From positions 192,001-256,000 of the forward strand of contig CAVSGI010000008.1 of the NCBI GenBank assembly GCA_963727445.1: a stretch of 64,000 nt of DNA, given 5' to 3'. The position numbers and the translations under genes are program-made. Shown here piece by piece: positions 18,436-46,296 of this stretch. Positions within the stretch are counted from its first letter, which is position 1; each line of letters starts with the position of its first letter. The stretch comes from an uncultured delta proteobacterium. GTDB lineage: Bacteria > Myxococcota_A > Polyangia > Polyangiales > B10-G4. The notes beneath the pieces are model-generated. The model made no database searches and was not told the DNA's origin. It was given only the letters and a program-made list of their open reading frames with translations.

Positions 18436-20046
18436 TCAGCGCGCGGGATAGAAGGAGACGGCGAGGCGCATGCGTTCAACCGCCCCCGGGCCGTAGCTGA
18501 CCTGTCGCAGCTGGACAATCGCGCATTGGTTGAACTCGGGATAGTGGTTTCCCACCGCGTGAATGGCGTGCGGCGAGCCATGCTCGTCGAGGTCGATGAG
18601 GAAATCGACGCCGCGATCGCTCCGCGGCTCCGGCACCCCGCGGGGCCAACAGGACGTGAGGTCGGCGACGCCGCGCAACCGAGACAGGACGTCCCTTGCG
18701 CGTCGGGAGCGAAACTCGCCGCCGGCGAAGACCACCTCGACCAGGCGCCTGCCGCCTGACCGCATGCGTCCGCGCTTCGTGCGGCGTTCTGCGCCGGCGC
18801 CGCCTTCCGCGTTGGCGTCGGGTCCCACGTGGGCGGCGGCATCGGCGACGGGGACGACCACCGGGAGGGCCACGGCCTCGGTGGCGGGTACGACGGCGGT
18901 CGGCGCGACGGCCAGCGGCGCCGTGTCCTCTTCGCGGTCCGCGTCACCGACCCACAGCCACGTTCCCACCGCGCCGGCCAGCGCGACCAGGAGCAGGACG
19001 GAAGCCGTGACCAGCACGCGAGGCCACCGGCGCTCCTCCGCCTCGTTCGAGACGTCGGCGGCGCGCCCCGGGAGCTCGGCTCGGGTCGGCGGCGCCTGCG
19101 GGGTCGACTCCTCCGGGGCGTAGGAGACCCGCAGCGACGCGAGGTCGGCGGGCGGACGCCAGTCGACGATCGTCGACTTGGCCGTCGCGTCGAGTGACGC
19201 GAGCGCGTCGTTCATCTCCTCCGCGCTCTGGTAGCGCGCTTCGGGGTCGTGGGCGATCGCGCGCTCGATGATCTCGCCGAGTCGTCCGAGCCTCGGGGAG
19301 CGTTCGTGGATGCGCGCGCGCTCGTCGGCGACCATCCGTTTGAGGATGTCCACGTAGTCTCCGCGTCCGTAGGGCGGCTCACCGGCGAAGATGCGGTGCA
19401 GGATCGCACCCACCGAATAGACGTCCGCAGTCGGCCCGGCCGGCTCGCCCATCGCCTGCTGCGGCGACATGTACGAGGGCGTGCCCACCACCTGACCGGT
19501 CGACGTGAGGCGCGTCATCGCGTCGCTCATGGCGAGGCGCGCCACGCCGTAGTCGACGACCTTGGCGATCTCGCCAGCGCCGCCACGCCCCTCGACGAGC
19601 ATCACGTTCGCCGGCTTGAGGTCGCGATGCACGACGCCGATCGCATGACCCGCCGCGACGGCCGCGAGCACCTGCCGCGCGATGCGGATCGCGCGCTGGG
19701 CGTCGAAGGTCTCACCGCGCTTCAATCGCTCGCTCAGCGACGCGCCCTCGAGGAGCTCCATCGCGATGAAGGGCGGCTCGCCCCCGCCGCCGCCAGCGGT
19801 GATCACCTCGACGACATGCGGATGTGAGATGCGCGCCATGACCTCGGCTTCGCGCGCGAAGCGGCGCATCACCTCGTCGTCTTCGCCGAGCCCGGGATGA
19901 ATGAGCTTGATCGCGACCGCGCGTCCCGTCGCGACCTCGATCCCCGCGAAGACGGCACCCATGCCCCCGCGGCCGAGGGCGCGGTCGAGGCGGAAGCGCC
20001 CGCCGCCGACGTTGGTGCCCACGAGCTCGAGGAGTCGTTCGTGCAT
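18436..20046 (-). CDS. Transmembrane Ser/Thr protein kinase
   Basis: LGRGGMGAVF, VAIK, HRDLKPAN, DYG, GTPSYMSP; TM helix and extracellular C-domain. Confidence 0.93.
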   Translation of the reverse strand: MHERLLELVGTNVGGGRFRLDRALGRGGMGAVFAGIEVATGRAVAIKLIHPGLGEDDEVMRRFAREAEVMARISHPHVVEVITAGGGGGEPPFIAMELLEGASLSERLKRGETFDAQRAIRIARQVLAAVAAGHAIGVVHRDLKPANVMLVEGRGGAGEIAKVVDYGVARLAMSDAMTRLTSTGQVVGTPSYMSPQQAMGEPAGPTADVYSVGAILHRIFAGEPPYGRGDYVDILKRMVADERARIHERSPRLGRLGEIIERAIAHDPEARYQSAEEMNDALASLDATAKSTIVDWRPPADLASLRVSYAPEESTPQAPPTRAELPGRAADVSNEAEERRWPRVLVTASVLLLVALAGAVGTWLWVGDADREEDTAPLAVAPTAVVPATEAVALPVVVPVADAAAHVGPDANAEGGAGAERRTKRGRMRSGGRRLVEVVFAGGEFRSRRARDVLSRLRGVADLTSCWPRGVPEPRSDRGVDFLIDLDEHGSPHAIHAVGNHYPEFNQCAIVQLRQVSYGPGAVERMRLAVSFYPAR

Positions 20047-20096: not shown

Positions 20097-21680
20097 TCAG
20101 AGGGCTTGGAAGAAGGAGTAGTGCAAGACGACCGTCTCTGCCTCGCCGAAACGGAATTGGACGCGCTCGAGCTTGTGCGTCGCGCACCGGTTGAACTCGG
20201 GGTATGCGGACGTGGTTTCGACGGATTGCACCGCGCCCCACTGGTCGAGCTCGATGCGCAGGTCGGCGCCTCGATTGAAGTTCGGCGGCACCGGCGCGCC
20301 GAGAGGCCAGCACGCCGAGAGGTCGGCTCGATCGCCCAGGCTCATCCGAATCGTGTCTCGGCGCGAGCCGAGGTCGCCGCCGGTGAAGTTCACGACGGCC
20401 AGGCGCCTGACGCGCCTGGCGATTTGCGAACGCATCCCAGTCTCGGCGCTTCTCGTGGTCGCATGCGCGTCTTCTCGCGCATCGCCGCCTGCGTCTCTGG
20501 CGACGGGCTCCTCGGGGGCGACGAGCGCGACGGCTTCGGTTGGCGCGATGATGGGGGACGAGGGAGACGTCAGCTCCGGGCTCGGGACATCGCCATGGGT
20601 CGCGTCGAACCACAGCCAGGTGCCGAGCCCGCCGCCGAGCGCAATGAACGCGAACAAGACGAAGACCAAGAGAGGGCGCGCTCGTGACGCGCGGGGAGCG
20701 CCGACGTGGGCCTCGGTTTTCGGGCGTGGCTCGCGCACCGGCGGGTCGTCCGCGGCGGCGGGGAGGCGCAGAGAAGCGAGGTCCGGCGGCGGACGCCAAT
20801 CGAGGATCGTCGTCTTCGCCTTCGCGTCGATCGAGGCGAGCGCGTCGTTCATCTCGTCCGCGCTCTGGTAGCGAGCTTCGGGCTCGTACGCGACGGCGCG
20901 CTCGATGATCTCCCCCAGGCGACCGAGCCCCTCCACACGCTCCTGGATGCGTGAGCGCTCGTCCACGACCATGCGCTTCAACAGATCGATGTACTGCCCG
21001 CTGCCGTACGGCGGCTCCCCCGCGACGAGACGATGCAGGATCGCGCCGACCGCGTAGATATCGGCCTCCGGCCCCACGGGCTCGCCCATCGCCTGCTGCG
21101 GCGACATGTAGGAAGGCGTCCCCACCACCTGCCCGGTCGCCGTGAGCCGCGTCATCGCGTCGCTCATCGCCAAACGCGCCACGCCGTAGTCGACGACCTT
21201 CGCGATCTCCTCGCCGCCCGGCCCGGAGACCAGCATCACGTTCGCCGGCTTGAGGTCGCGATGCACGACGCCGATCGCATGACCCGCCGCGACCGCGGCG
21301 AGCACCTGCCGCGCGATGCGGACGGCGCGCTGGGCATCGAAGGTCTCACCGCGCTTCAATCGCTCGCTCAGCGACGCGCCCTCGAGGAGCTCCATCGCGA
21401 TGAAGGGCGGCTCGCCCTGCCCTCCCCCTGCCGCGATCACCTCGACCACGTGCGGGTGTGAAAGGCGCGTCGTGACCTCGGCCTCGCGCTGAAAGCGCTT
21501 CATCGCCGCGCTCTCTTCGGCGAGCCCCGGATGCATCAGCTTGATCGCCACCGCGCGCCCCGTCGCGACCTCGACCGCCGCGAAGACCGCCCCCATGCCG
21601 CCATGGCCGAGCACGCGATCGAGGCGAAAGCGCCCCTGACCGACCGTCTTACCCACGAGCGCCAGGAGACCTTCGTGCAT
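20097..21680 (-). CDS. Transmembrane Ser/Thr protein kinase, tandem paralog
   Basis: LGHGGMGAVF, VAIK, HRDLKPAN, DYG, GTPSYMSP; TM helix. Confidence 0.93.
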   Translation of the reverse strand: MHEGLLALVGKTVGQGRFRLDRVLGHGGMGAVFAAVEVATGRAVAIKLMHPGLAEESAAMKRFQREAEVTTRLSHPHVVEVIAAGGGQGEPPFIAMELLEGASLSERLKRGETFDAQRAVRIARQVLAAVAAGHAIGVVHRDLKPANVMLVSGPGGEEIAKVVDYGVARLAMSDAMTRLTATGQVVGTPSYMSPQQAMGEPVGPEADIYAVGAILHRLVAGEPPYGSGQYIDLLKRMVVDERSRIQERVEGLGRLGEIIERAVAYEPEARYQSADEMNDALASIDAKAKTTILDWRPPPDLASLRLPAAADDPPVREPRPKTEAHVGAPRASRARPLLVFVLFAFIALGGGLGTWLWFDATHGDVPSPELTSPSSPIIAPTEAVALVAPEEPVARDAGGDAREDAHATTRSAETGMRSQIARRVRRLAVVNFTGGDLGSRRDTIRMSLGDRADLSACWPLGAPVPPNFNRGADLRIELDQWGAVQSVETTSAYPEFNRCATHKLERVQFRFGEAETVVLHYSFFQAL

Positions 21681-22496: not shown

Positions 22497-23294
22497 ATGA
22501 CTCGCTTGATCTCGATTCTTCTTCTCGTCTCCGCATCCCACTTCGCCCTCGCCTGCACCGAGGACGACGGCGGCCCCTACCTGTCGGACACCGGCACGAC
22601 CGGCGACACCGGCACGAGCATGGACACCGGCACGGGCATGGACACCGGCACGACCGGCGACACCGGCACGACCGGCGACACCGGCACGACCGGCGACACC
22701 GGCACCGCTGCAGACAGCAGCGTCATGTACCCGGACAGCGGCATGGGCGACCCGGAGTGGGTCGACCTCACCCTCGGGCCGACCGGCACGTGCACGACCT
22801 TCACGCCCTGCGGCGGCGACATCGTGGGCAGCTGGGACCTGACGGGCGGGTGCTTCGAGGACGACCTCGACTCGACGATCAGCGCCTGCCCCGGCGCGAT
22901 GGTCACGAGCCGCACCGGCCGCGGCCGCGGGCGCGTCGTCTTCCCGGCGACCGGCCCGGCGCATCGCGTCGCCGAGAGCGAGATCGAGTACCAGCTCTAT
23001 TATCCGTCGGGCTGCGCCGCCATCTACAGCTGCGCCATGCTCGAGGCGGCGATCGCGCCCTACGTCGACACCGTCTCGTGCCCCGTCGAAGCCAGCGGCG
23101 ACTGCACATGCACCGCGAACCTGCGGACGGTCATCGACCAGCGCGACACCTACACCACCGACATGAATCAGATCGTCGGCACCACCAGCGGCAAGCGCTG
23201 GGACTACTGCGTCGACGGCGACACGCTCACCTACAAAGACACCGACACCAGCGCCGCCGGCGAGCCGGGCATCATCGAGCTCGGCCGGAACTGA
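22497..23294 (+). CDS. Lipoprotein with DTGTTG linker and Cys-containing domain
   Basis: Lipobox ALAC; TPCGGDIVGSW...DYCVDGDTL; TATCTT 6 nt before ATG. Confidence 0.85.
   Translation: MTRLISILLLVSASHFALACTEDDGGPYLSDTGTTGDTGTSMDTGTGMDTGTTGDTGTTGDTGTTGDTGTAADSSVMYPDSGMGDPEWVDLTLGPTGTCTTFTPCGGDIVGSWDLTGGCFEDDLDSTISACPGAMVTSRTGRGRGRVVFPATGPAHRVAESEIEYQLYYPSGCAAIYSCAMLEAAIAPYVDTVSCPVEASGDCTCTANLRTVIDQRDTYTTDMNQIVGTTSGKRWDYCVDGDTLTYKDTDTSAAGEPGIIELGRN
22587..22706 (+). repeat. 18-bp coding tandem repeat (DTGTTG), about 6-7 units
   Basis: gacaccggcacgaccggc units. Confidence 0.9.
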
Positions 23295-34062: not shown

Positions 34063-34200
34063 CTACTTCTTGCCTTTGGCAAGTGATTCTCCCTGCCCCA
34101 GACCGTCCTGCTTGTTCTTGGCCTTCTGCTTCTGCTTCTGTTTGGAGGCCGCCTGCTGGTTCTTGTTCTTCTGCTTCGACTTCGGAGACTTGTCTCCCAT
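34063..34200 (-). CDS. 45-aa Lys/Gln-rich small basic protein
   Basis: MGDKSPKSKQKNKNQQ...; GAGGTG RBS; Lys codons mostly AAG. Confidence 0.75.
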   Translation of the reverse strand: MGDKSPKSKQKNKNQQAASKQKQKQKAKNKQDGLGQGESLAKGKK

Positions 34201-34237
34201 ATTCACCTCGTTTCGCGCGGCGCTTTGCCACGGGTCG

Positions 34238-35065
34238 TCAACCTTCACCACCGATGTCTCTGTTCATGGAATCGACGAGCAGATCCGCCTCGCCGTCGTC
34301 ATGCCGCGTGATCTGTCGCGTGAGCCGGACGAGCGCGGGGCGGTGGTCGTAAGTGGATCCTTCAGCGCGAACCGTCGCGATGAGCTGATCCAACTCCTCG
34401 AGGAGCGTTCGGTGCTCGTCCTGCAGGACGCCGACGCGGCGGTGGTTGTCGACGCCCGTTTCCACGAGCACGTCGAAGAGCCCGCCCGAGCTCTCCTCGT
34501 CGGCGAACCGGCGGCTGAGCACGTCGCGAAGCGCCAGTAGATCTTTCTTGAGCAGCTCGTTGATCACTGTCGGACCGTCGGGCTGTCCGCTGTGCCACTC
34601 CCCGTTGGTGGCCGTGCGGATGGACAGGACCGAGACCTCGAAGACCGATGCGTTCTTGCTGAATGGGTGATCGAAGTCGAGCGAGAGGGTGATCCCCTCA
34701 CGCCTCTCCACCTCCAGCGTCATATCGGATCCATCCAGGCCGCGGGCGTCGATCAGACTGCCGGGTGTCAGTTCGAAGAGACCCGACAATCGCTCGTTCG
34801 GCAAGGTGGCACGCCGCAGGACTCGTGCCTCGTGTCGGCGCCCCTCAGGCAGCGCGGCGGTGAAGATCTCGCCACTCTGGCGCCCCTCCATCTCCGCTTC
34901 GATCGCGTCGGGGAGCGAACCGCTGCCCCCATGCACGTAGTGCAGGAGCTCCGTGCTCGCAGCCAGGACTTCGCCGGCGGCATCGCGGATCACGAAGCGG
35001 TATCCGACGACGTCTCCCTTCTGAATTCGGCGCTCCTCCGGTGGGGCGCCTTCGTCTTCTTCCAT
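34238..35065 (-). CDS. SlyD-like FKBP domain fused to a hemerythrin-like helical domain
   Basis: N-part LHYVHGGSGSL..AIEAEMEG, LDFDHPF, FEVSVLSIRTAT; C-part RFADEE..GGLF, LQDEHRTLL, RHDDGEADLL, DIGGEG. Confidence 0.72.
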   Translation of the reverse strand: MEEDEGAPPEERRIQKGDVVGYRFVIRDAAGEVLAASTELLHYVHGGSGSLPDAIEAEMEGRQSGEIFTAALPEGRRHEARVLRRATLPNERLSGLFELTPGSLIDARGLDGSDMTLEVERREGITLSLDFDHPFSKNASVFEVSVLSIRTATNGEWHSGQPDGPTVINELLKKDLLALRDVLSRRFADEESSGGLFDVLVETGVDNHRRVGVLQDEHRTLLEELDQLIATVRAEGSTYDHRPALVRLTRQITRHDDGEADLLVDSMNRDIGGEG

Positions 35066-35155
35066 CTCTCATCTCGCTCGGCGGCGGGGGGAGCCCTGAC
35101 TACTCGCCGCGAGGAGTGGAGGCGCGCTGCGAAGAGCAGCGGTAGGGACAGCTTA
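35066..35155 (-). promoter_or_regulatory. -10 element plus structured 5' leader, copy A (candidate cis-regulatory RNA)
   Basis: TAAGCT-6 nt-A-c-cgctgctcttcgcagcg-c-gcctccactcctcgcggc-gagtagtcagggct; homologous to 43416-43507. Confidence 0.75.
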
Positions 35156-35747: not shown

Positions 35748-38481
35748 TCACTCTGGCGAAGGCGGCTCGGGCGAGGCGTTGCAGATCGCGCGCGTCACGA
35801 TGACGACGGCGCGGTAGCGAGACGGCGCGCGCATCTCGGCGCACTCCGCCTCGGCTTCTTCTTCTTCGCCGAGAGCGAGGAGGTTGCGACGGATCGCGAC
35901 GTGCTCGATGTAGCTGCCGGCACCCGATGGGTTGGTGAGATAGGTGCGCCACGCCTCGACGGCTTCCCGGTTGTGGCCCTCACGCTCGTGAGCCGCCGCG
36001 TCGGCGAGGATCTCGAGCGCCTGGGGCATCTCCTCCCGGGGCACCGGCTCGAGATCGTGGACCAGCGCCGGTGCGTGGGCGCCGACGAACCAGCGGACCA
36101 CCAGCACCGGCGTCACTTCGACCGCCAGCGGGTAGAGCTCGCGCAAAGGGTCTTCGGCGTCGGCGGCGATCAGGACCTCGCTCAACGAGCGGAGCAGGCG
36201 CCATCCATGGACGCCCGGGTCTCGACGCAGGCCATCGATCACCGCACGCGCGAGACGATCGCCGCGCGCGCGATCCCCCGCGGCATAGGCGCGCGCCGCA
36301 TGGTGGATCCGTCGCTCGGGCGCCCCGGGCGGATAGGTCTCGTCGACGAGAGCGTCGGCTTCATCGGCACGGCCGAGGAGCATCAAGGCGCCGACCCGGA
36401 GATCGATCGGTTGCCCTTCCTCCGACACCTCGGCGTAGCGCTTCTCGGCGAAGGTGATCTCGGCGGCGTAGCGCGTTGGCACGTCCGGGTCCGTGCGCAT
36501 CATCCGCTCGTAATCCCACGCCACGTCGAAGCGGCGCAGTCCGGTGGCGTAGCCGAGGGGGTGCAGAATGGCGATCTTGAAGCTGGGCGCCGATCGCATC
36601 ACCCGCTCGAACGTCTCGATGCCGGTGCGGTATCGACCCGAATGGTATTGGACCTCGGCCAGGGTGTAGCCGATGTCGCGATCGCGTGGGTTCTCCTCGT
36701 GAAGCGGGGTCAGGATCTCGACGCCGCGATCGTAGTCGTAGGTGAAGTAGGCGCTCAGGGCTTCGACCAGGGTGCGATCCCGGCGAGTGGTGGCGAGCTC
36801 GCCCGCCCTCTCGGCGGCGGCGAGGATGTCCTCGAGCTCCGCCGGCGCCCACGATCGCGCGAGCGCGAGGTAGTACCAGGCTTCGAAGAACTCCGGATCG
36901 CTCTCTACCGCGCGTTCGAGGTGCGTGATGGCGGCAGGCCACTGCTGCTCGGCGAGTGCGCGCGCCCCGAGGTCGTAGGCAGCGAGCCCCGACATGGAGT
37001 GGGTGGCCGCCGTGGGTGCGGTGGTCTGGATACCGAGGCGTTCGAAGGTCGCCTGCGCGAGCTGGGTCAGCGCCGCGTCCACGTCGGCCGCCTCCACGTG
37101 TACCTCGAGATCTTCGCGGTCTCCGAGTCCGCGAAGCCGAAGGTCCCCCGTAGCGCCGCTGGCTTCGGTGGCGACGATTCGCCCCTCGAGCAGGTGCGTC
37201 GCCCCCGCGCTCTGTGCGACGCGTTCCCAAGCCGGCGTGCTCGTCATGAACTCCGACACCATGCTCCGGAGATCCTGAGGCGACAGAAGCCGCAGCTCCG
37301 GCGCGTGACGGAGCAGCGTGGCGAGCACCTGCGCGAGTCCTTCGGAGCGCTCCGACGCGAGCCCTTCGACCTCGACTTCGAGGGGCGCGACCGCGAGCAC
37401 CAGAATCCTCCTGCGGCTCGGGCGCCGCGACATCCGGCGTCGAAGTGGAAGTCACCGGCGCCGGTGGGGACTGTCGCCCGACCCAGAGCAAGGCACCCAG
37501 CGCCGCGATCGCCGCGGCGGCGAGCGCCAGCCCCCACCAGGCGACGCCCTTCGGTCGAGTCGACCGCCCCGCATCGACGGTGGTCTGCGCGCCCCCGGCC
37601 GCGAGTGAGGCCGGCGGTGAAGTCGCGGTCGACGAAGCGACGCCCGCCGCCTGATTCAACGTCGCGGCGACCTCCGCCATCGGTGGGCGCGCTTCGGGCG
37701 CCGCGTCCAGCATGCGCGCGACGAGGTCCGCGATCGGCGCCTCGACGAGGCCCTCTTCGTCGAGTCGGGGTGGCGGCTGTCGGGTGGAGATGCGCTTCAA
37801 TGCTTCGGGGAGCGTGTCGCCCTCGAAGGGCAGGTCGCCACAGAGGAGCTCGTAGAGCGTCGTCCCGAGGGCGTAGGTGTCGGTGGCCTCGGAGGCGTCG
37901 CCACCTCCGAGGACCTCCGGCGGCATGTACGCAGGCGTCCCCACGATCAGCCCCGCGTGCGTCACCAGCGGGTTGCTCACGGTTCGTCCGTCGTCGGTGA
38001 GCAGGGGAGCCTCTTGCTCCGTGAGGGCGATGCCAAAGTCGACGACCTTCGCCTTCCCGGCGCGGGTCACCATGATGTTGTCGGGCTTGATGTCGCGATG
38101 AAGCACGCCGGCGGCGTGGGTCTCCACGAGCGCCGAGGCCACCTCGGCGATCAATCGGTAGAGGTCCGCTCGCGACAATCCAGCCGCGACTTCCTCACGA
38201 AGCGACCGTCCCTCGATCAGCTCCATCGCGATGTACTCGCGATCGTCGTGGACCCCAATCTCGTGGATCGTGACGACGCCTGGGATGTTCAGCGCCGCGA
38301 GGGCACGGGCCTCGCGGCGGAAACGCTTCCTGGCCACCTCGGATCCGGACACCGCCGAGTGGATCACCTTGATGGCCACCCGTCGTCGCAAGTCGGGGTC
38401 CTCGGCCACGAAGACCTCGCCCATCGCCCCGGCGCCGAGCGGCCGCACGATGCGGTAACGACCAATCTGGCCCTCCACCAC
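35748..38481 (-). CDS. Ser/Thr kinase with TM, TolB-N-like and TPR domains (frameshift near 37430)
   Basis: LGAGAMGEVF, VAIK, HRDIKPDN, DFG, GTPAYMPPE; TPR-like LERAVESDPEFFEAWYYLALA. Confidence 0.9.
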
Positions 38482-43007: not shown

Positions 43008-43373
43008 ATGTCCAATCAGGAAGAACGCGACCGCGGCCAGCTCTTCGACAACCGAGACAAGCGCAAGCCGAGTCAGCCAGACATGCAGGGCAAGGGTCGA
43101 GTGGGCGGCGTGTCGTACGCCATCTCGGGCTGGATGCGCGAGGATCGATTGGTGGTCTCGTTCGAGCCTCCCCGGGCGAAGGGCAACGCACACCCCGTGG
43201 GCGAGCTCCGCGGGGTCCTGGACCGCGCTTCGGAGGGCGAGGACGGCCCGCTCTGGCGCGGCGACGTCTCCGGGGAGGACGTGTCTTTCGTCGTGCGCGC
43301 ATTCCAGAAGATCGGCAAGAGCGGCGCATATCTCACCCTCGAGCTGATGCGCTCGGGTGAGAGCGCCCCCTAG
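43008..43373 (+). CDS. Small beta-rich protein resembling phage ssDNA-binding/DUF736-like proteins
   Basis: GQLFDNRDKRKPSQPDMQG...YAISGW and GPLWRG...RAFQKIGKSGAYLTL. Confidence 0.6.
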   Translation: MSNQEERDRGQLFDNRDKRKPSQPDMQGKGRVGGVSYAISGWMREDRLVVSFEPPRAKGNAHPVGELRGVLDRASEGEDGPLWRGDVSGEDVSFVVRAFQKIGKSGAYLTLELMRSGESAP

Positions 43374-43415
43374 CCCGCCGAAATCACTTTCGTGGCGCAG
43401 AGGACCCAAACGAGC

Positions 43416-43507
43416 TAAGTTCCGCCCATCGCTGCCGTTTCGCAGCGAGCCTCCACTCCTCGCGGCCGGGTAGTTTGGGCTACCGACGCGCCGCCCGAGT
43501 GTGACTT
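43416..43507 (+). promoter_or_regulatory. -10 element plus structured 5' leader, copy B (candidate cis-regulatory RNA)
   Basis: TAAGTT-6 nt-A-t-cgctgccgtttcgcagcg-a-gcctccactcctcgcggc-cgggtagtttgggct; homologous to 35066-35155 (-). Confidence 0.75.
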
Positions 43508-44737
43508 TTGACTTCGAAACCCGCCGGCAACGACCGGCCGACCACCGCTGCGACCTTCGCCTCCCTCGAGCTCCCCCTGCCCCTGCTCCGGGCCCTCGAC
43601 GACGAAGGCTACGCGACGCCCACCGCCATTCAGCGGCAAGCCATCCCCCATGCCCTCGCCGGGCGTGACATCCTCGCCACCGCCCAGACCGGAACGGGCA
43701 AGACCGCAGCGTTCCTGCTGCCCATCGTCGCGCGCCTCCTGGAGCGCCCGGGGCGCGGCATCCGAGCGCTCATCATCTCCCCCACCCGAGAGCTCGCGTC
43801 GCAGATCGCCGAACGCGCCGACGCCTACACGCGCCACACGGAGATCGAGCACGCGGTGATCTACGGCGGTGTGCGTCAGCGGATCCAGGAGCGCGCGCTC
43901 CGGCGCGATCCCTCGATCGTCGTGGCGACCCCTGGCCGCCTCCTCGATCTGATTCAGCAGCGTGTCGTGCGCCTCGATGACGTGGACACGTTGGTCCTCG
44001 ACGAAGCCGACCGGATGTTCGACATGGGGTTCTTGCCCGACGTTCGGCGCATCGTGTCCGAGGTCTCCACCGACCGCCAAACGCTGCTCTTCTCCGCCAC
44101 GATGCCCCCGAGCATCTCCCGCCTCGCCCAGAGCATCCTTCAGGACCCGGTGCGCGTCGAGGTCGACCCGCCGGACGAGACGCCGGACGTCGTCGACCAG
44201 TCCGTCTATTTTCTGCGGAGCGCGGAGAAGCCCGCGCTCCTACTGCGACTGCTGCGCGGGCGGGACATGGACCGCGCGCTGATCTTCACGCGCACCAAGC
44301 GCGCCGCCGACCAACTGGCGGACCGACTCTCTCGCGACGGGCTCGGCGCCGACGCGATCCACGGCGACAAGTCGCAGGCGGATTGGGAGAGGGCCCTCTC
44401 GGCGTTCCGCAACGGCGAGATGCCGGTGCTGGTGGCGACCGACGTCGCCGCCCGAGGAATCGACGTCAAGGGCGTCACCCACGTGTTCAACTACGAGCTG
44501 CCCGACAGCCCGGAGAGCTACGTCCATCGCATCGGCCGAACCGGTCGCGCGGGAGCCGTCGGCAAGGCCATCTCGCTTTGTGACCCGACGGAGCGCGGCC
44601 AGCTCTACGACATCGAGCGCACCCTCAAGGTGCGCATCCCCCAGGGCGGGGAAGACGAAAATGGCGCGACCGCCCGCGCGCGTGAGGTCGTGCACTTCGG
44701 TGGAAGGCGCGGCGAGCGCAAGCGCAGGCGCTGGTAG
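43508..44737 (+). CDS. DEAD-box RNA helicase (RhlE-like)
   Basis: Q motif GYATPTAIQ, TGTGKT, PTRELA, TPGRLLD, DEAD, SAT, HGD, TDVAARGID, HRIGRTGR; TTG start. Confidence 0.96.
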   Translation: MTSKPAGNDRPTTAATFASLELPLPLLRALDDEGYATPTAIQRQAIPHALAGRDILATAQTGTGKTAAFLLPIVARLLERPGRGIRALIISPTRELASQIAERADAYTRHTEIEHAVIYGGVRQRIQERALRRDPSIVVATPGRLLDLIQQRVVRLDDVDTLVLDEADRMFDMGFLPDVRRIVSEVSTDRQTLLFSATMPPSISRLAQSILQDPVRVEVDPPDETPDVVDQSVYFLRSAEKPALLLRLLRGRDMDRALIFTRTKRAADQLADRLSRDGLGADAIHGDKSQADWERALSAFRNGEMPVLVATDVAARGIDVKGVTHVFNYELPDSPESYVHRIGRTGRAGAVGKAISLCDPTERGQLYDIERTLKVRIPQGGEDENGATARAREVVHFGGRRGERKRRRW

Positions 44738-44790
44738 TCGAGGCGCAGCAGGCGCGAAGGCCGGCGCGGGCGCCGTGATATCATCGCTCC

Positions 44791-46296
44791 GTGGCCATAC
44801 GCGTCGTCCCCATTGTCCCTTTCGTCATCGTCCTGGCCGCGTGCTCGGGTGGTTCCGGCCGCGATGGTGACGGCGGGGGCTCGGCGGACTCGGGCGCGAG
44901 CACGGACTCGGGCGGGGGCATGGACTCGAGCACGTCCATGGACTCGGGCGCGTCGGGCGACGGGGGCGGCGGCGACGCCAACAACATGTACGCGATGGAC
45001 GCCGGCCCCGGGTGCGAGACGGGGGCGACGATGTGCACGCCCGTCGATCCTGGTTGCGTCGGCGCCGAGATCTGCGACGACGGACTCGACAACGACTGCA
45101 ACCTGCTCGTCGACGACGGCTGCCCCTGCGTGCCCGGCACCGTGCAGACCTGCTTCGCCGGACCGCCCGGGTCGCGCAACGTCGGCGCATGCAGCGACGG
45201 GACGCAGCGCTGCGAAGGCTCCTTCGAGTTCGGCACCTGGGGCGAATGCACAGGCGGCATCGCGCCGATGGCGGAGACGTGCGACGTCCTCGACAACGAC
45301 TGCAACGGCTGCACGGACGAGAACGACTGCTGCGGCGAAGAGCTCAGCTGCCCAGGCCCCGGCGACCCGCGCGTGCCGACCCCGCAGCCCTTCGACGACG
45401 TGACCATCGACGGCACCGCGTTCTACGGGATGGCGGGCGCCACCTTCTCCTGGGAGATCGAGGGCGGGCCCTGCGAGGCGGTGATCCCGGAACCCACCTT
45501 CACCACCGGCTCGCTCACGGACTCCACCCTCCACTTCACTCCGACGCTGAGCGGCGACTACACGGTGACGATGACCGTGCACACCGCCGCCGGCGAAGAC
45601 CTGACCTGCACCTTCGTCGTCCACGTCGTCGGCGAGGGCCTGCGCGTCGAGCTCTGCTGGCAGCCGACCACGCCCACCGGCGGCACGAGCGACCTCGATC
45701 TCTACCTCCACGACCCGTCGATGATGGGCCCCTGGTACGCCATGGGCGGCAACGTCGTCTTTTCAGGCGTGACCACCGGCAACTCCTGCAACTGGGCGAA
45801 CTGCGCCCCGGGCCTTCGCTCGTCGCTTCCTCGCGCCGACTGGGGCTACGCCAACTCGCCGCTCTCCGCGTGCGACCGCGGCCCGGCCGGTGCCGGTTGG
45901 ACGGGCATCGGCCACTGCCCGAACCCGCGCATCGACGTCGACGGGCACGGGTCCTCCTTCGAGCCGCTCCACGGCTTCATCGAAAACATCAACGCCGACA
46001 ACCCGAACGACGGCCAGACGTTCCGCGTCATGGTCCATGACTGCACGAGCCCACCCTCGAACCCGGTCGTCAACGTCTACTGTGGCGGCTTCCTCCGCGC
46101 GACGATCGGCGCCGCCCCGGACACCATCACGCTCCCAGGCGGCTCGAGCTGCTCCGCCGACACCGACACCGTGTGGCGCGTCGCCGACGTCACCGTCCAC
46201 GTCGACGCCGCGGGCGTCACCACCGGATGCGACGTCACGCCGATCCGCGAGATGGGCGGCGGCCCGCACCTGACGATCGGCGACCTCGCGTACTGA
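44791..46296 (+). CDS. Cys-rich lipoprotein with CDxLDNDC repeats and Ig/PKD-like domain
   Basis: Lipobox LAAC; EICDDGLDNDCN, ETCDVLDNDCNG; LRVELCW, DLDLYLH, ENIN. Confidence 0.85.
   Translation: MAIRVVPIVPFVIVLAACSGGSGRDGDGGGSADSGASTDSGGGMDSSTSMDSGASGDGGGGDANNMYAMDAGPGCETGATMCTPVDPGCVGAEICDDGLDNDCNLLVDDGCPCVPGTVQTCFAGPPGSRNVGACSDGTQRCEGSFEFGTWGECTGGIAPMAETCDVLDNDCNGCTDENDCCGEELSCPGPGDPRVPTPQPFDDVTIDGTAFYGMAGATFSWEIEGGPCEAVIPEPTFTTGSLTDSTLHFTPTLSGDYTVTMTVHTAAGEDLTCTFVVHVVGEGLRVELCWQPTTPTGGTSDLDLYLHDPSMMGPWYAMGGNVVFSGVTTGNSCNWANCAPGLRSSLPRADWGYANSPLSACDRGPAGAGWTGIGHCPNPRIDVDGHGSSFEPLHGFIENINADNPNDGQTFRVMVHDCTSPPSNPVVNVYCGGFLRATIGAAPDTITLPGGSSCSADTDTVWRVADVTVHVDAAGVTTGCDVTPIREMGGGPHLTIGDLAY

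Follow-up and report, generated by a model that had tools for sequence, protein, structure and literature searches.

What governs a DEAD-box RNA helicase gene that opens at a TTG codon, directly behind a structured-looking leader that recurs elsewhere in the same genome? The gene lies in a 64,000-nucleotide stretch (G000:C8:192001-256000, here called the window) from genome G000, an uncultured myxobacteria-like bacterium with a 9.47-Mb, 68.8% G+C assembly in 27 contigs. Taken together, sequence comparison and predicted folding suggest, at about even chances, that a leader of roughly 80 nt, present in three genomic copies and placed behind a promoter-like element, is a cis-acting mRNA control element shared by the genes that follow it. 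In the predicted folds, the leader strongly sequesters the Shine-Dalgarno-like tract, rather than the start codon.

At the helicase locus, the upstream gene ends at 43373, and the 134-base gap before the helicase contains a promoter-like pair of hexamers and the leader copy termed copy B. The elements are:

43393..43398, + strand: -35-like hexamer TGGCGC (predicted), 17 bases 5' of the -10-like box.
43416..43421, + strand: -10-like hexamer TAAGTT (predicted).
43430..43447, + strand: leader hairpin 1 (CGCTGC, loop CGTTTC, GCAGCG), a 6-bp stem predicted to stand at the mRNA 5' end.
43450..43466, + strand: pyrimidine-rich 5' strand, CCTCCACTCCTCGCGGC, containing CCUCC.
43467..43487, + strand: apical hairpin (GGGTAGT ... 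GGGCTACC), the most variable helix.
43488..43504, + strand: 3' strand, GCGCCGCCCGAGTGTGA, which pairs with the 5' strand, carries the only Shine-Dalgarno-like purine tract and ends in an in-frame TGA.
43508..44737, + strand: DEAD-box RNA helicase of 409 aa with a TTG start and a short basic C-terminal tail; the frame is complete.

An earlier note on this DNA began the leader at 43416, which is the first base of the -10-like box and not of the transcribed leader. Its claim that a repeated leader precedes a helicase with a TTG start holds. The frame opens at TTG 43508-43510, runs for 409 codons and closes at TAG 44735-44737. The TTG is the only canonical start: the TGA at 43502-43504 is in frame, and from the TTG to the region of the Q motif the sequence contains no other ATG, GTG or TTG. 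This assignment is supported by the ortholog in a second genome of the order (G002; 68% identity), which has a GTG start at the equivalent site: 16 residues before a conserved Phe, as is the TTG here.

The repeat itself is readily detected. Inside the window, copy B matches copy A with a blastn E=5e-11, and a core-motif scan located copy C outside it, on contig C9. A profile of the three copies has exactly three matches genome-wide (E 9e-22 to 4e-20; next best E=5.3), and a covariance model, R1, likewise finds three sites in the genome. The further features are:

35066..35155, - strand: copy A, promoter-like box and leader (-10-like TAAGCT 35155-35150; hairpin 1 35141-35125; 5' strand 35122-35106; 3' strand 35085-35072).
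34238..35065, - strand: the gene after copy A, a fusion of 275 aa whose N-terminal half is SlyD-like (FKBP/IF) and whose C-terminal half is weakly hemerythrin-like.
34063..34251, - strand: putative Lys-rich open reading frame (ORF) of 62 aa, overlapping the end of the fusion gene; no Pfam or NCBIfam match.
G000:C9:214464-214754 (L001:1465-1757): GGWPGT ORF of 97 aa, the first gene after copy C, with the motif GGWPGT(L/V)SEAR.

The genes behind the leaders share a functional theme, as the earlier note had anticipated. In the fusion protein, residues 17-160 match Thermus SlyD (3cgm) at E=3.7e-12; the NCBIfam SlyD models (E about 1e-4) and Pfam Hemerythrin (E=4.8e-4) all fall below their cut-offs. 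The GGWPGT protein has no Pfam or NCBIfam match and no usable ESM Atlas match. Its gene is followed by one for an RRM_1 protein (Pfam 4.1e-21; NCBIfam 'RNA-binding regulator' 96.5 versus a cut-off of 100) and then by a second DEAD-box helicase gene (3.5e-48). All three copies in the genome, and all three found elsewhere, thus precede a DEAD-box gene, the RRM operon, a GGWPGT ORF or the SlyD-like chaperone. The note had expected cold-shock (csp), helicase, peptidyl-prolyl isomerase (PPIase) and ribosome-related genes; the helicases and the SlyD-like protein were found, the csp gene has no leader, and the genome-wide matches include no ribosomal gene. Every leader (6/6) is in sense orientation and ends within about 10 bases of the start, the gene start in one genome (G138) being ambiguous. 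Their lengths differ by amounts that are not multiples of 3, which argues against the leader being coding.

Recognisable relatives are rare, with one copy each in two other genomes of the order (G002, G138) and on a metagenome contig (L015). In each case the leader precedes a helicase ortholog (G002) or a GGWPGT homolog (L015, G138), and the end of the G002 ortholog overlaps a GGWPGT ORF. R1 matched five of 151 genomes of the order at E<=0.01, and only G000 and G002 (7e-8) are real; on reading, the matches in G014, G098 and G150 lack the conserved blocks and are false. An exact-pattern scan of reference genome contigs gave two loci: the G002 contig, and one in a Treponema metagenome-assembled genome that was rejected for want of flanking similarity. 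Among JGI metagenome contigs, five loci fitted the exact pattern; L015, where the leader stands before a GGWPGT ORF, is the only true copy, the matches in L012, L013, L014 and L016 being fortuitous ones within unrelated sequence.

Scoring of the regions upstream of 29 GGWPGT homologs, with filters off, singled out G002 and G138 alone. The G138 leader is a diverged copy, matched at 8e-9 by a second covariance model, R2. Over 32 genomes of family f22, R2 gave G138 as the only convincing match, with weaker candidates in G118 (0.049) and G073 (0.067); its match in G098 is the same false site as with R1, and over 151 genomes of the class it found G000 only. A looser pattern matched eight of 401 genomes of the order, and was set aside as a reversed-pattern control gives about as many or more; for five of its six extra loci, covariance-model matches (best E=0.031) all lay away from the pattern sites. 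GGWPGT homologs are present in 112 of those 401 genomes (with the unpublished G387 and G396 counted in) and usually adjoin an RRM gene, a DEAD-box gene or both, in varying order. Small shares (0.06-0.22) of sampled words from window positions 43200-44800 are present in four DNA metagenome runs, and no RNA run was found to contain this part of the window.

The G138 locus has a peculiarity of its own (L022:1430-1720). There, the frame of the GGWPGT homolog begins beyond a TGA that closely follows the leader, and it reaches its conserved core without an ATG, GTG or TTG; the GTG that follows the leader is in a different frame, closing after 14 codons. This could reflect a frameshift, a fault in the assembly or the use of a non-canonical start.

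Copies A and C are 89% identical (71/80). This identity and the narrow distribution are what would be seen if the copies were functionless remnants of a recent segmental duplication. A functionless origin of this kind is very improbable: the downstream genes are not mutually homologous, the likeness between copies ends at the start codons, substitutions fall mainly in unpaired columns, and three families of the order retain the element at an identity like that of coding sequence, the far-upstream DNA having diverged. Between the orthologous B and G002 loci, identical over aligned positions number 62/78 in the leader, 30/43 in the promoter region, 918/1217 in the coding sequence and 84/143 far upstream.

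Copies A, B and C are each predicted to form hairpin 1 followed by a long interrupted helix, in which the partner of the invariant CUCCACUCCUCGCGGC is GCCGCC-GAGUGAGA, lying shortly before the start codon; the 3' strand is paired in the minimum-energy folds of all three. Within the 5' strand, TCCACTCCTCGCGGC is identical among A, B, C and L015. Hairpin 1, whose loop varies in length and sequence, folds at 37 °C in five of the six leaders (not G138), and in G002 it is extended to 9 bp, one U-A to A-U swap included. The apical helix (helix 4) is variable in 10 of its 14 paired columns, with 80% of cells paired. Across the six-sequence alignment, 91.9% of cells pair, as compared to 25-49% with the partners slid. 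With gap columns counted as variable, variable columns among A, B and C make up 5/50 of the paired and 23/36 of the unpaired columns; among all six leaders the figures are 18/50 and 44/49. The covariation score for the six sequences is reached in 12 of 500 shuffles.

In every copy, hairpin 1 lies a few bases from the predicted 5' end, and its stem is kept through changes of sequence. These features suit an element of mRNA stability only, in which the 5' hairpin and the long helix would shield the message against decay that depends on the 5' end, for a high expression that is constitutive and not conditionally controlled. So limited a role is improbable, as it leaves unexplained the strict conservation of CUCCACUCCUCGCGGC and its pairing with the ribosome-binding tract. 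An attenuator or terminator was also considered; its weak stem and UUUU occur in copy B and are absent from the other copies, and this candidate was rejected.

One long-range pairing is seen in copy B alone. The hairpin-1 loop GUUUCG (43436-43441) is complementary to CGAAAC in helicase codons 3-5 (43515-43520). When copy B is folded with 48 coding bases at 5-37 °C, this loop-codon pairing displaces hairpin 1 in the minimum-energy fold, and the UUG start is buried, with an unpaired probability of 0.00-0.03.

The 3' end of the 16S rRNA reads GGATCACCTCCTTTCT, so the CCUCC strand of the leader and the anti-Shine-Dalgarno sequence have a core in common. In each start region the purine tract is the best anti-Shine-Dalgarno partner (-3.9 to -7.8 kcal/mol; -7.8 for B), and 3-10 bases separate the end of the conserved GAGUGAGA-type tract from the start codon.

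Does the leader then respond to temperature by itself, as a cspA-type or zipper RNA thermosensor? The DEAD-box/RRM/PPIase theme matches genes that are cold-induced in other bacteria (PMC3590241), the 6-bp stem-loop at the leader 5' end is like that of cspA (PMC9411577), and in C, G002 and L015 a second GAGUGA, which includes the GUG start, offers an alternative partner for the pyrimidine strand. The predicted folds speak otherwise. Between 5 and 45 °C, the mean unpaired probability over positions -15 to +6 changes by 0.05, 0.10, 0.03, 0.05, 0.04 and 0.03 in the six leaders, and at 45 °C the minimum-energy folds of A, B, C, G002 and L015 still contain the long helix. A block on the proximal partner carries a cost of 12-15 kcal/mol; at equilibrium, then, the two states do not have nearly equal energies. 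Taken with an accessibility change of at most 0.10, this cost makes a melting thermometer unlikely. Whole-leader fold energies at 37 °C, -33 to -45 kcal/mol, also look more stable than is usual for melting thermometers. The calculations describe equilibrium folding, beyond whose reach a co-transcriptional or kinetic switch would lie.

No thermoregulator of Rfam matches the leader. With Rfam 15, the whole window at gathering score yields two tRNAs only; 43300-43600 at E<=10 yields only c4-a1b1 (11.6 bits versus 46.7, E=2.3); and the copy C locus yields no match. A literature search on myxobacterial helicase or RRM leaders, which was not exhaustive, found none. A cspA-type thermosensor, a kind that the earlier note mentions, or a melting one is not supported here, and autonomous temperature sensing of any such kind appears quite unlikely.

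The main alternative to an RNA element is a cassette acting at the level of DNA: a propagated promoter and operator, read by a dedicated sigma factor or by a repressor that binds the inverted repeat CGCTGC-N-GCAGCG together with the block next to it, with co-regulation being transcriptional and the RNA fold incidental. Homologous promoter regions before unrelated genes are a described phenomenon ('mobile promoters'). Here, the -35-like TGGCGC and the TAnnnT box are conserved along with the leader. The -35-like position reads TGGCGC in B, C, G002 and L015, TAGCGC in G138 and TGGCTT in copy A, and the TAnnnT box lies 7-10 bases 5' of hairpin 1 in all six copies (8 bases in copy B). Hairpin 1 is a perfect inverted repeat, and RNA covariation is weak. 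However, the conservation spans about 80 bases up to the start codon, not one 20-bp site; the spacing of the inverted-repeat halves varies (5, 6, 5, 3-5 and 4 bases), the hairpin of G002 being a different and longer one; and G-U pairs are kept on the sense strand only. The G-U pairs in the alignment, together with the varying loop length of hairpin 1, fit RNA better than a dimeric operator. Only three sites in the genome fit the pattern CGTGGCGC-N16-18-TANNNT: those of B and C, and one in front of an unrelated phosphatase gene. There is thus no sign of a wider promoter regulon. On balance, a purely transcriptional cassette is unlikely.

The third site of this pattern, G000:C20:468108 (-), stands before a low-molecular-weight phosphotyrosine-phosphatase-like ORF and is probably a chance occurrence.

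Returning to the shared RNA element, several observations weigh against it. First, the fold: both partners change in only two of 25 pairs, a number that 55 of 500 shuffles attain; 13 of the 25 never vary; and the fold energies are ordinary for the composition (z = -0.76, -1.71 and -1.13; 42, 11 and 25 of 200 shuffles fold as well). For these reasons, the leader structure is plausible, not proven. The alignment was moreover fitted to the structure model and holds only six sequences, which are related. Second, ribosome access: opening the start region at 37 °C costs only 2.0-4.7 kcal/mol in five leaders (8.4 in G138), and the start codon is predicted to be largely unpaired in A and roughly half so in C and G138. 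Third, the promoter: a sigma-70 consensus scan found 0 sites, the promoter-like pair being non-consensus. Fourth, the gene set: the genome holds four strong DEAD-box genes, four RRM genes and one cold-shock-domain gene, and the leader serves two, one and none of these, respectively, the upstream regions of the others being unrelated. Finally, the distribution: a same-genus genome (G001, 86% complete), whose best helicase match is 52% identical, has no copy (best E=0.71), and the region upstream of a 65% identical helicase ortholog in G005 is unrelated to the leader. Given so narrow a distribution, recent common descent explains part of the identity among leaders.

If the leader does act as a control element in the mRNA, a sequence of steps can be proposed. 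Transcription would start 1-3 bases before the 6-bp hairpin 1, which would protect the mRNA 5' end. Next, CUCCACUCCUCGCGGC would pair with GCCGCC-GAGUGAGA, the only Shine-Dalgarno-like tract, keeping translation initiation low. The helix is probably too stable to melt in the physiological range; its opening would therefore need an RNA-unwinding or chaperone activity, or the release of a bound protein. The opening agent might plausibly be a product of the regulon itself, which would tie the supply of regulon proteins to the RNA-folding load of the cell, for example in the cold. Precedents for this scheme are autoregulation by CrhR (PMC3485376), relief of 5' untranslated region structure by DeaD (PMC3590241), and a 6-bp 5' stem-loop with rearrangement in the cspA leader (PMC9411577).

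Extended to its full form, the proposal is that the portable promoter-plus-leader cassette serves uncultured myxobacteria-like bacteria as an 'RNA-folding-load' homeostat. The controlled DEAD-box helicases and RRM protein would open or occupy the leader, and synthesis of these proteins and of the SlyD-like chaperone would track misfolded RNA rather than temperature as such. This version is speculative, and we would sooner expect it to be wrong than right by a wide measure. Overall, the interpretation of the earlier note, a folding-stress regulon joined by a shared leader, is partly supported.

The helicase that stands at the centre of this proposal is a DEAD-box protein with an RhlE/CshA-like core, a short basic tail and no C-terminal extension. 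Both RecA-like domains exceed their Pfam cut-offs (DEAD E=1.2e-51, 175.2 bits, cut-off 26; Helicase_C 6.3e-34, 117 bits, cut-off 23.5). The translation carries all motifs: the Q region, I (AQTGTGKT), Ia (PTRELA), Ib (TPGRL), II (DEAD), III (SAT), V (ARGID) and VI (HRIGRTGR). Its closest solved relative is CshA (5ivl, 1e-94). The description 'RhlE-like' fits only in a loose sense; the name RhlE was not adopted because the NCBIfam equivalog scores lie well under the cut-offs for RhlE (NF007882; 409.9 versus 743) and for CshA (NF053631; 421.9 versus 646), and the protein is filed as neither.

A different leader was seen in seven genomes of family f17 of the same order, where the RRM gene standing before the GGWPGT ORF is equipped with a separate conserved leader of 175-195 nt, reading GUCACAGCGUUUUCGG ... 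CGCCUGCCUGCCUCUCG ... GAGAUCGCGGAAAGUCG ... CCUGUGG. It is unrelated in sequence to the helicase leader. Several hairpins are present, with some compensatory changes (e.g., GAUCGC/GCGAUC versus GACCGC/GCGACC), and the three of the seven loci that were scanned gave no Rfam match at E<=1. In gene-oriented locus coordinates (those of L036 and L037 being reverse-complemented relative to the stored locus), these f17 RRM leaders are:

L032:920-1114: f17 RRM leader.
L033:876-1060: f17 RRM leader.
L034:925-1117: f17 RRM leader.
L035:924-1117: f17 RRM leader.
L036:926-1099: f17 RRM leader.
L037:944-1135: f17 RRM leader.
L039:845-1037: f17 RRM leader.

Two further kinds of repeat occur in the window. 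Tandem 18-base repeats, GACACCGGCACGACCGGC-like, would encode Asp-Thr/Ser-Gly units at 44868-44939, early in the next ORF after the helicase (44791-46296), and again 22 kb away at 22568-22729. Segments 19109-19877 and 20746-21511 are neighbours of 78-88% identity at a spacing of about 1.63 kb, with shorter related matches near 37900-38230, which suggests tandem paralogous genes.

Little has been described of how bacteria beyond the model organisms control RNA helicases and RRM-type RNA-binding proteins. If real, the leader would be a compact, unlisted RNA motif, and a single post-transcriptional regulon would embrace a protein chaperone along with RNA chaperones. Its 80 nt, with one invariant strand, would give a defined, mutable target for asking whether helicases sense demand by way of their own mRNAs. 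The cassette also shows how a regulon may grow, by copying of promoter and leader before unrelated genes. The narrow distribution limits the present weight of the finding.

Among known systems, a near one in design is found in E. coli, where a cold box common to csp genes and csdA is titrated by a repressor. The cspA 5' untranslated region, like the leader described here, is common to several stress or RNA-chaperone genes. It shows no sequence or model similarity to this leader, for which c4-a1b1 was the best Rfam match, and it is about twice as long (about 160 nt versus about 80 nt). In addition, the single cold-shock-domain gene of this genome is without the leader, and no temperature dependence is predicted. 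Likeness extends to the 6-bp stem-loop at the extreme 5' end and to a long-range pairing, which in cspA affects mRNA stability and start-codon access (PMC9411577). A second likeness is to crhR of Synechocystis, a DEAD-box helicase gene whose expression is partly post-transcriptional and dependent on the helicase itself; the abstract of that study defines no leader motif (PMC3485376), whereas the element here is common to several genes.

The ROSE and fourU thermometers share with this leader a pyrimidine strand that pairs with the ribosome-binding tract in an imperfect helix. They differ in that the leader has no Rfam match, its helix is far more stable and predicted to stay closed over 5-45 °C, and the genes served are not heat-shock or virulence genes. 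Nor do the predicted folds show the marginally stable Shine-Dalgarno hairpin, melting in the growth range, of a zipper thermometer. Autogenous control offers the last comparison. For CspA of S. aureus (PMC5815144) and for the PNPase leader of E. coli, the RNA-binding product is reported to act on its own structured 5' untranslated region, with control relieved in the cold; this resembles the control proposed here. The motif is unrelated in sequence to either of these leaders. In the way it would work, the leader most resembles the cspA-type leaders that several genes share and the leaders of chaperone genes under autogenous control, and it belongs to none of these groups.

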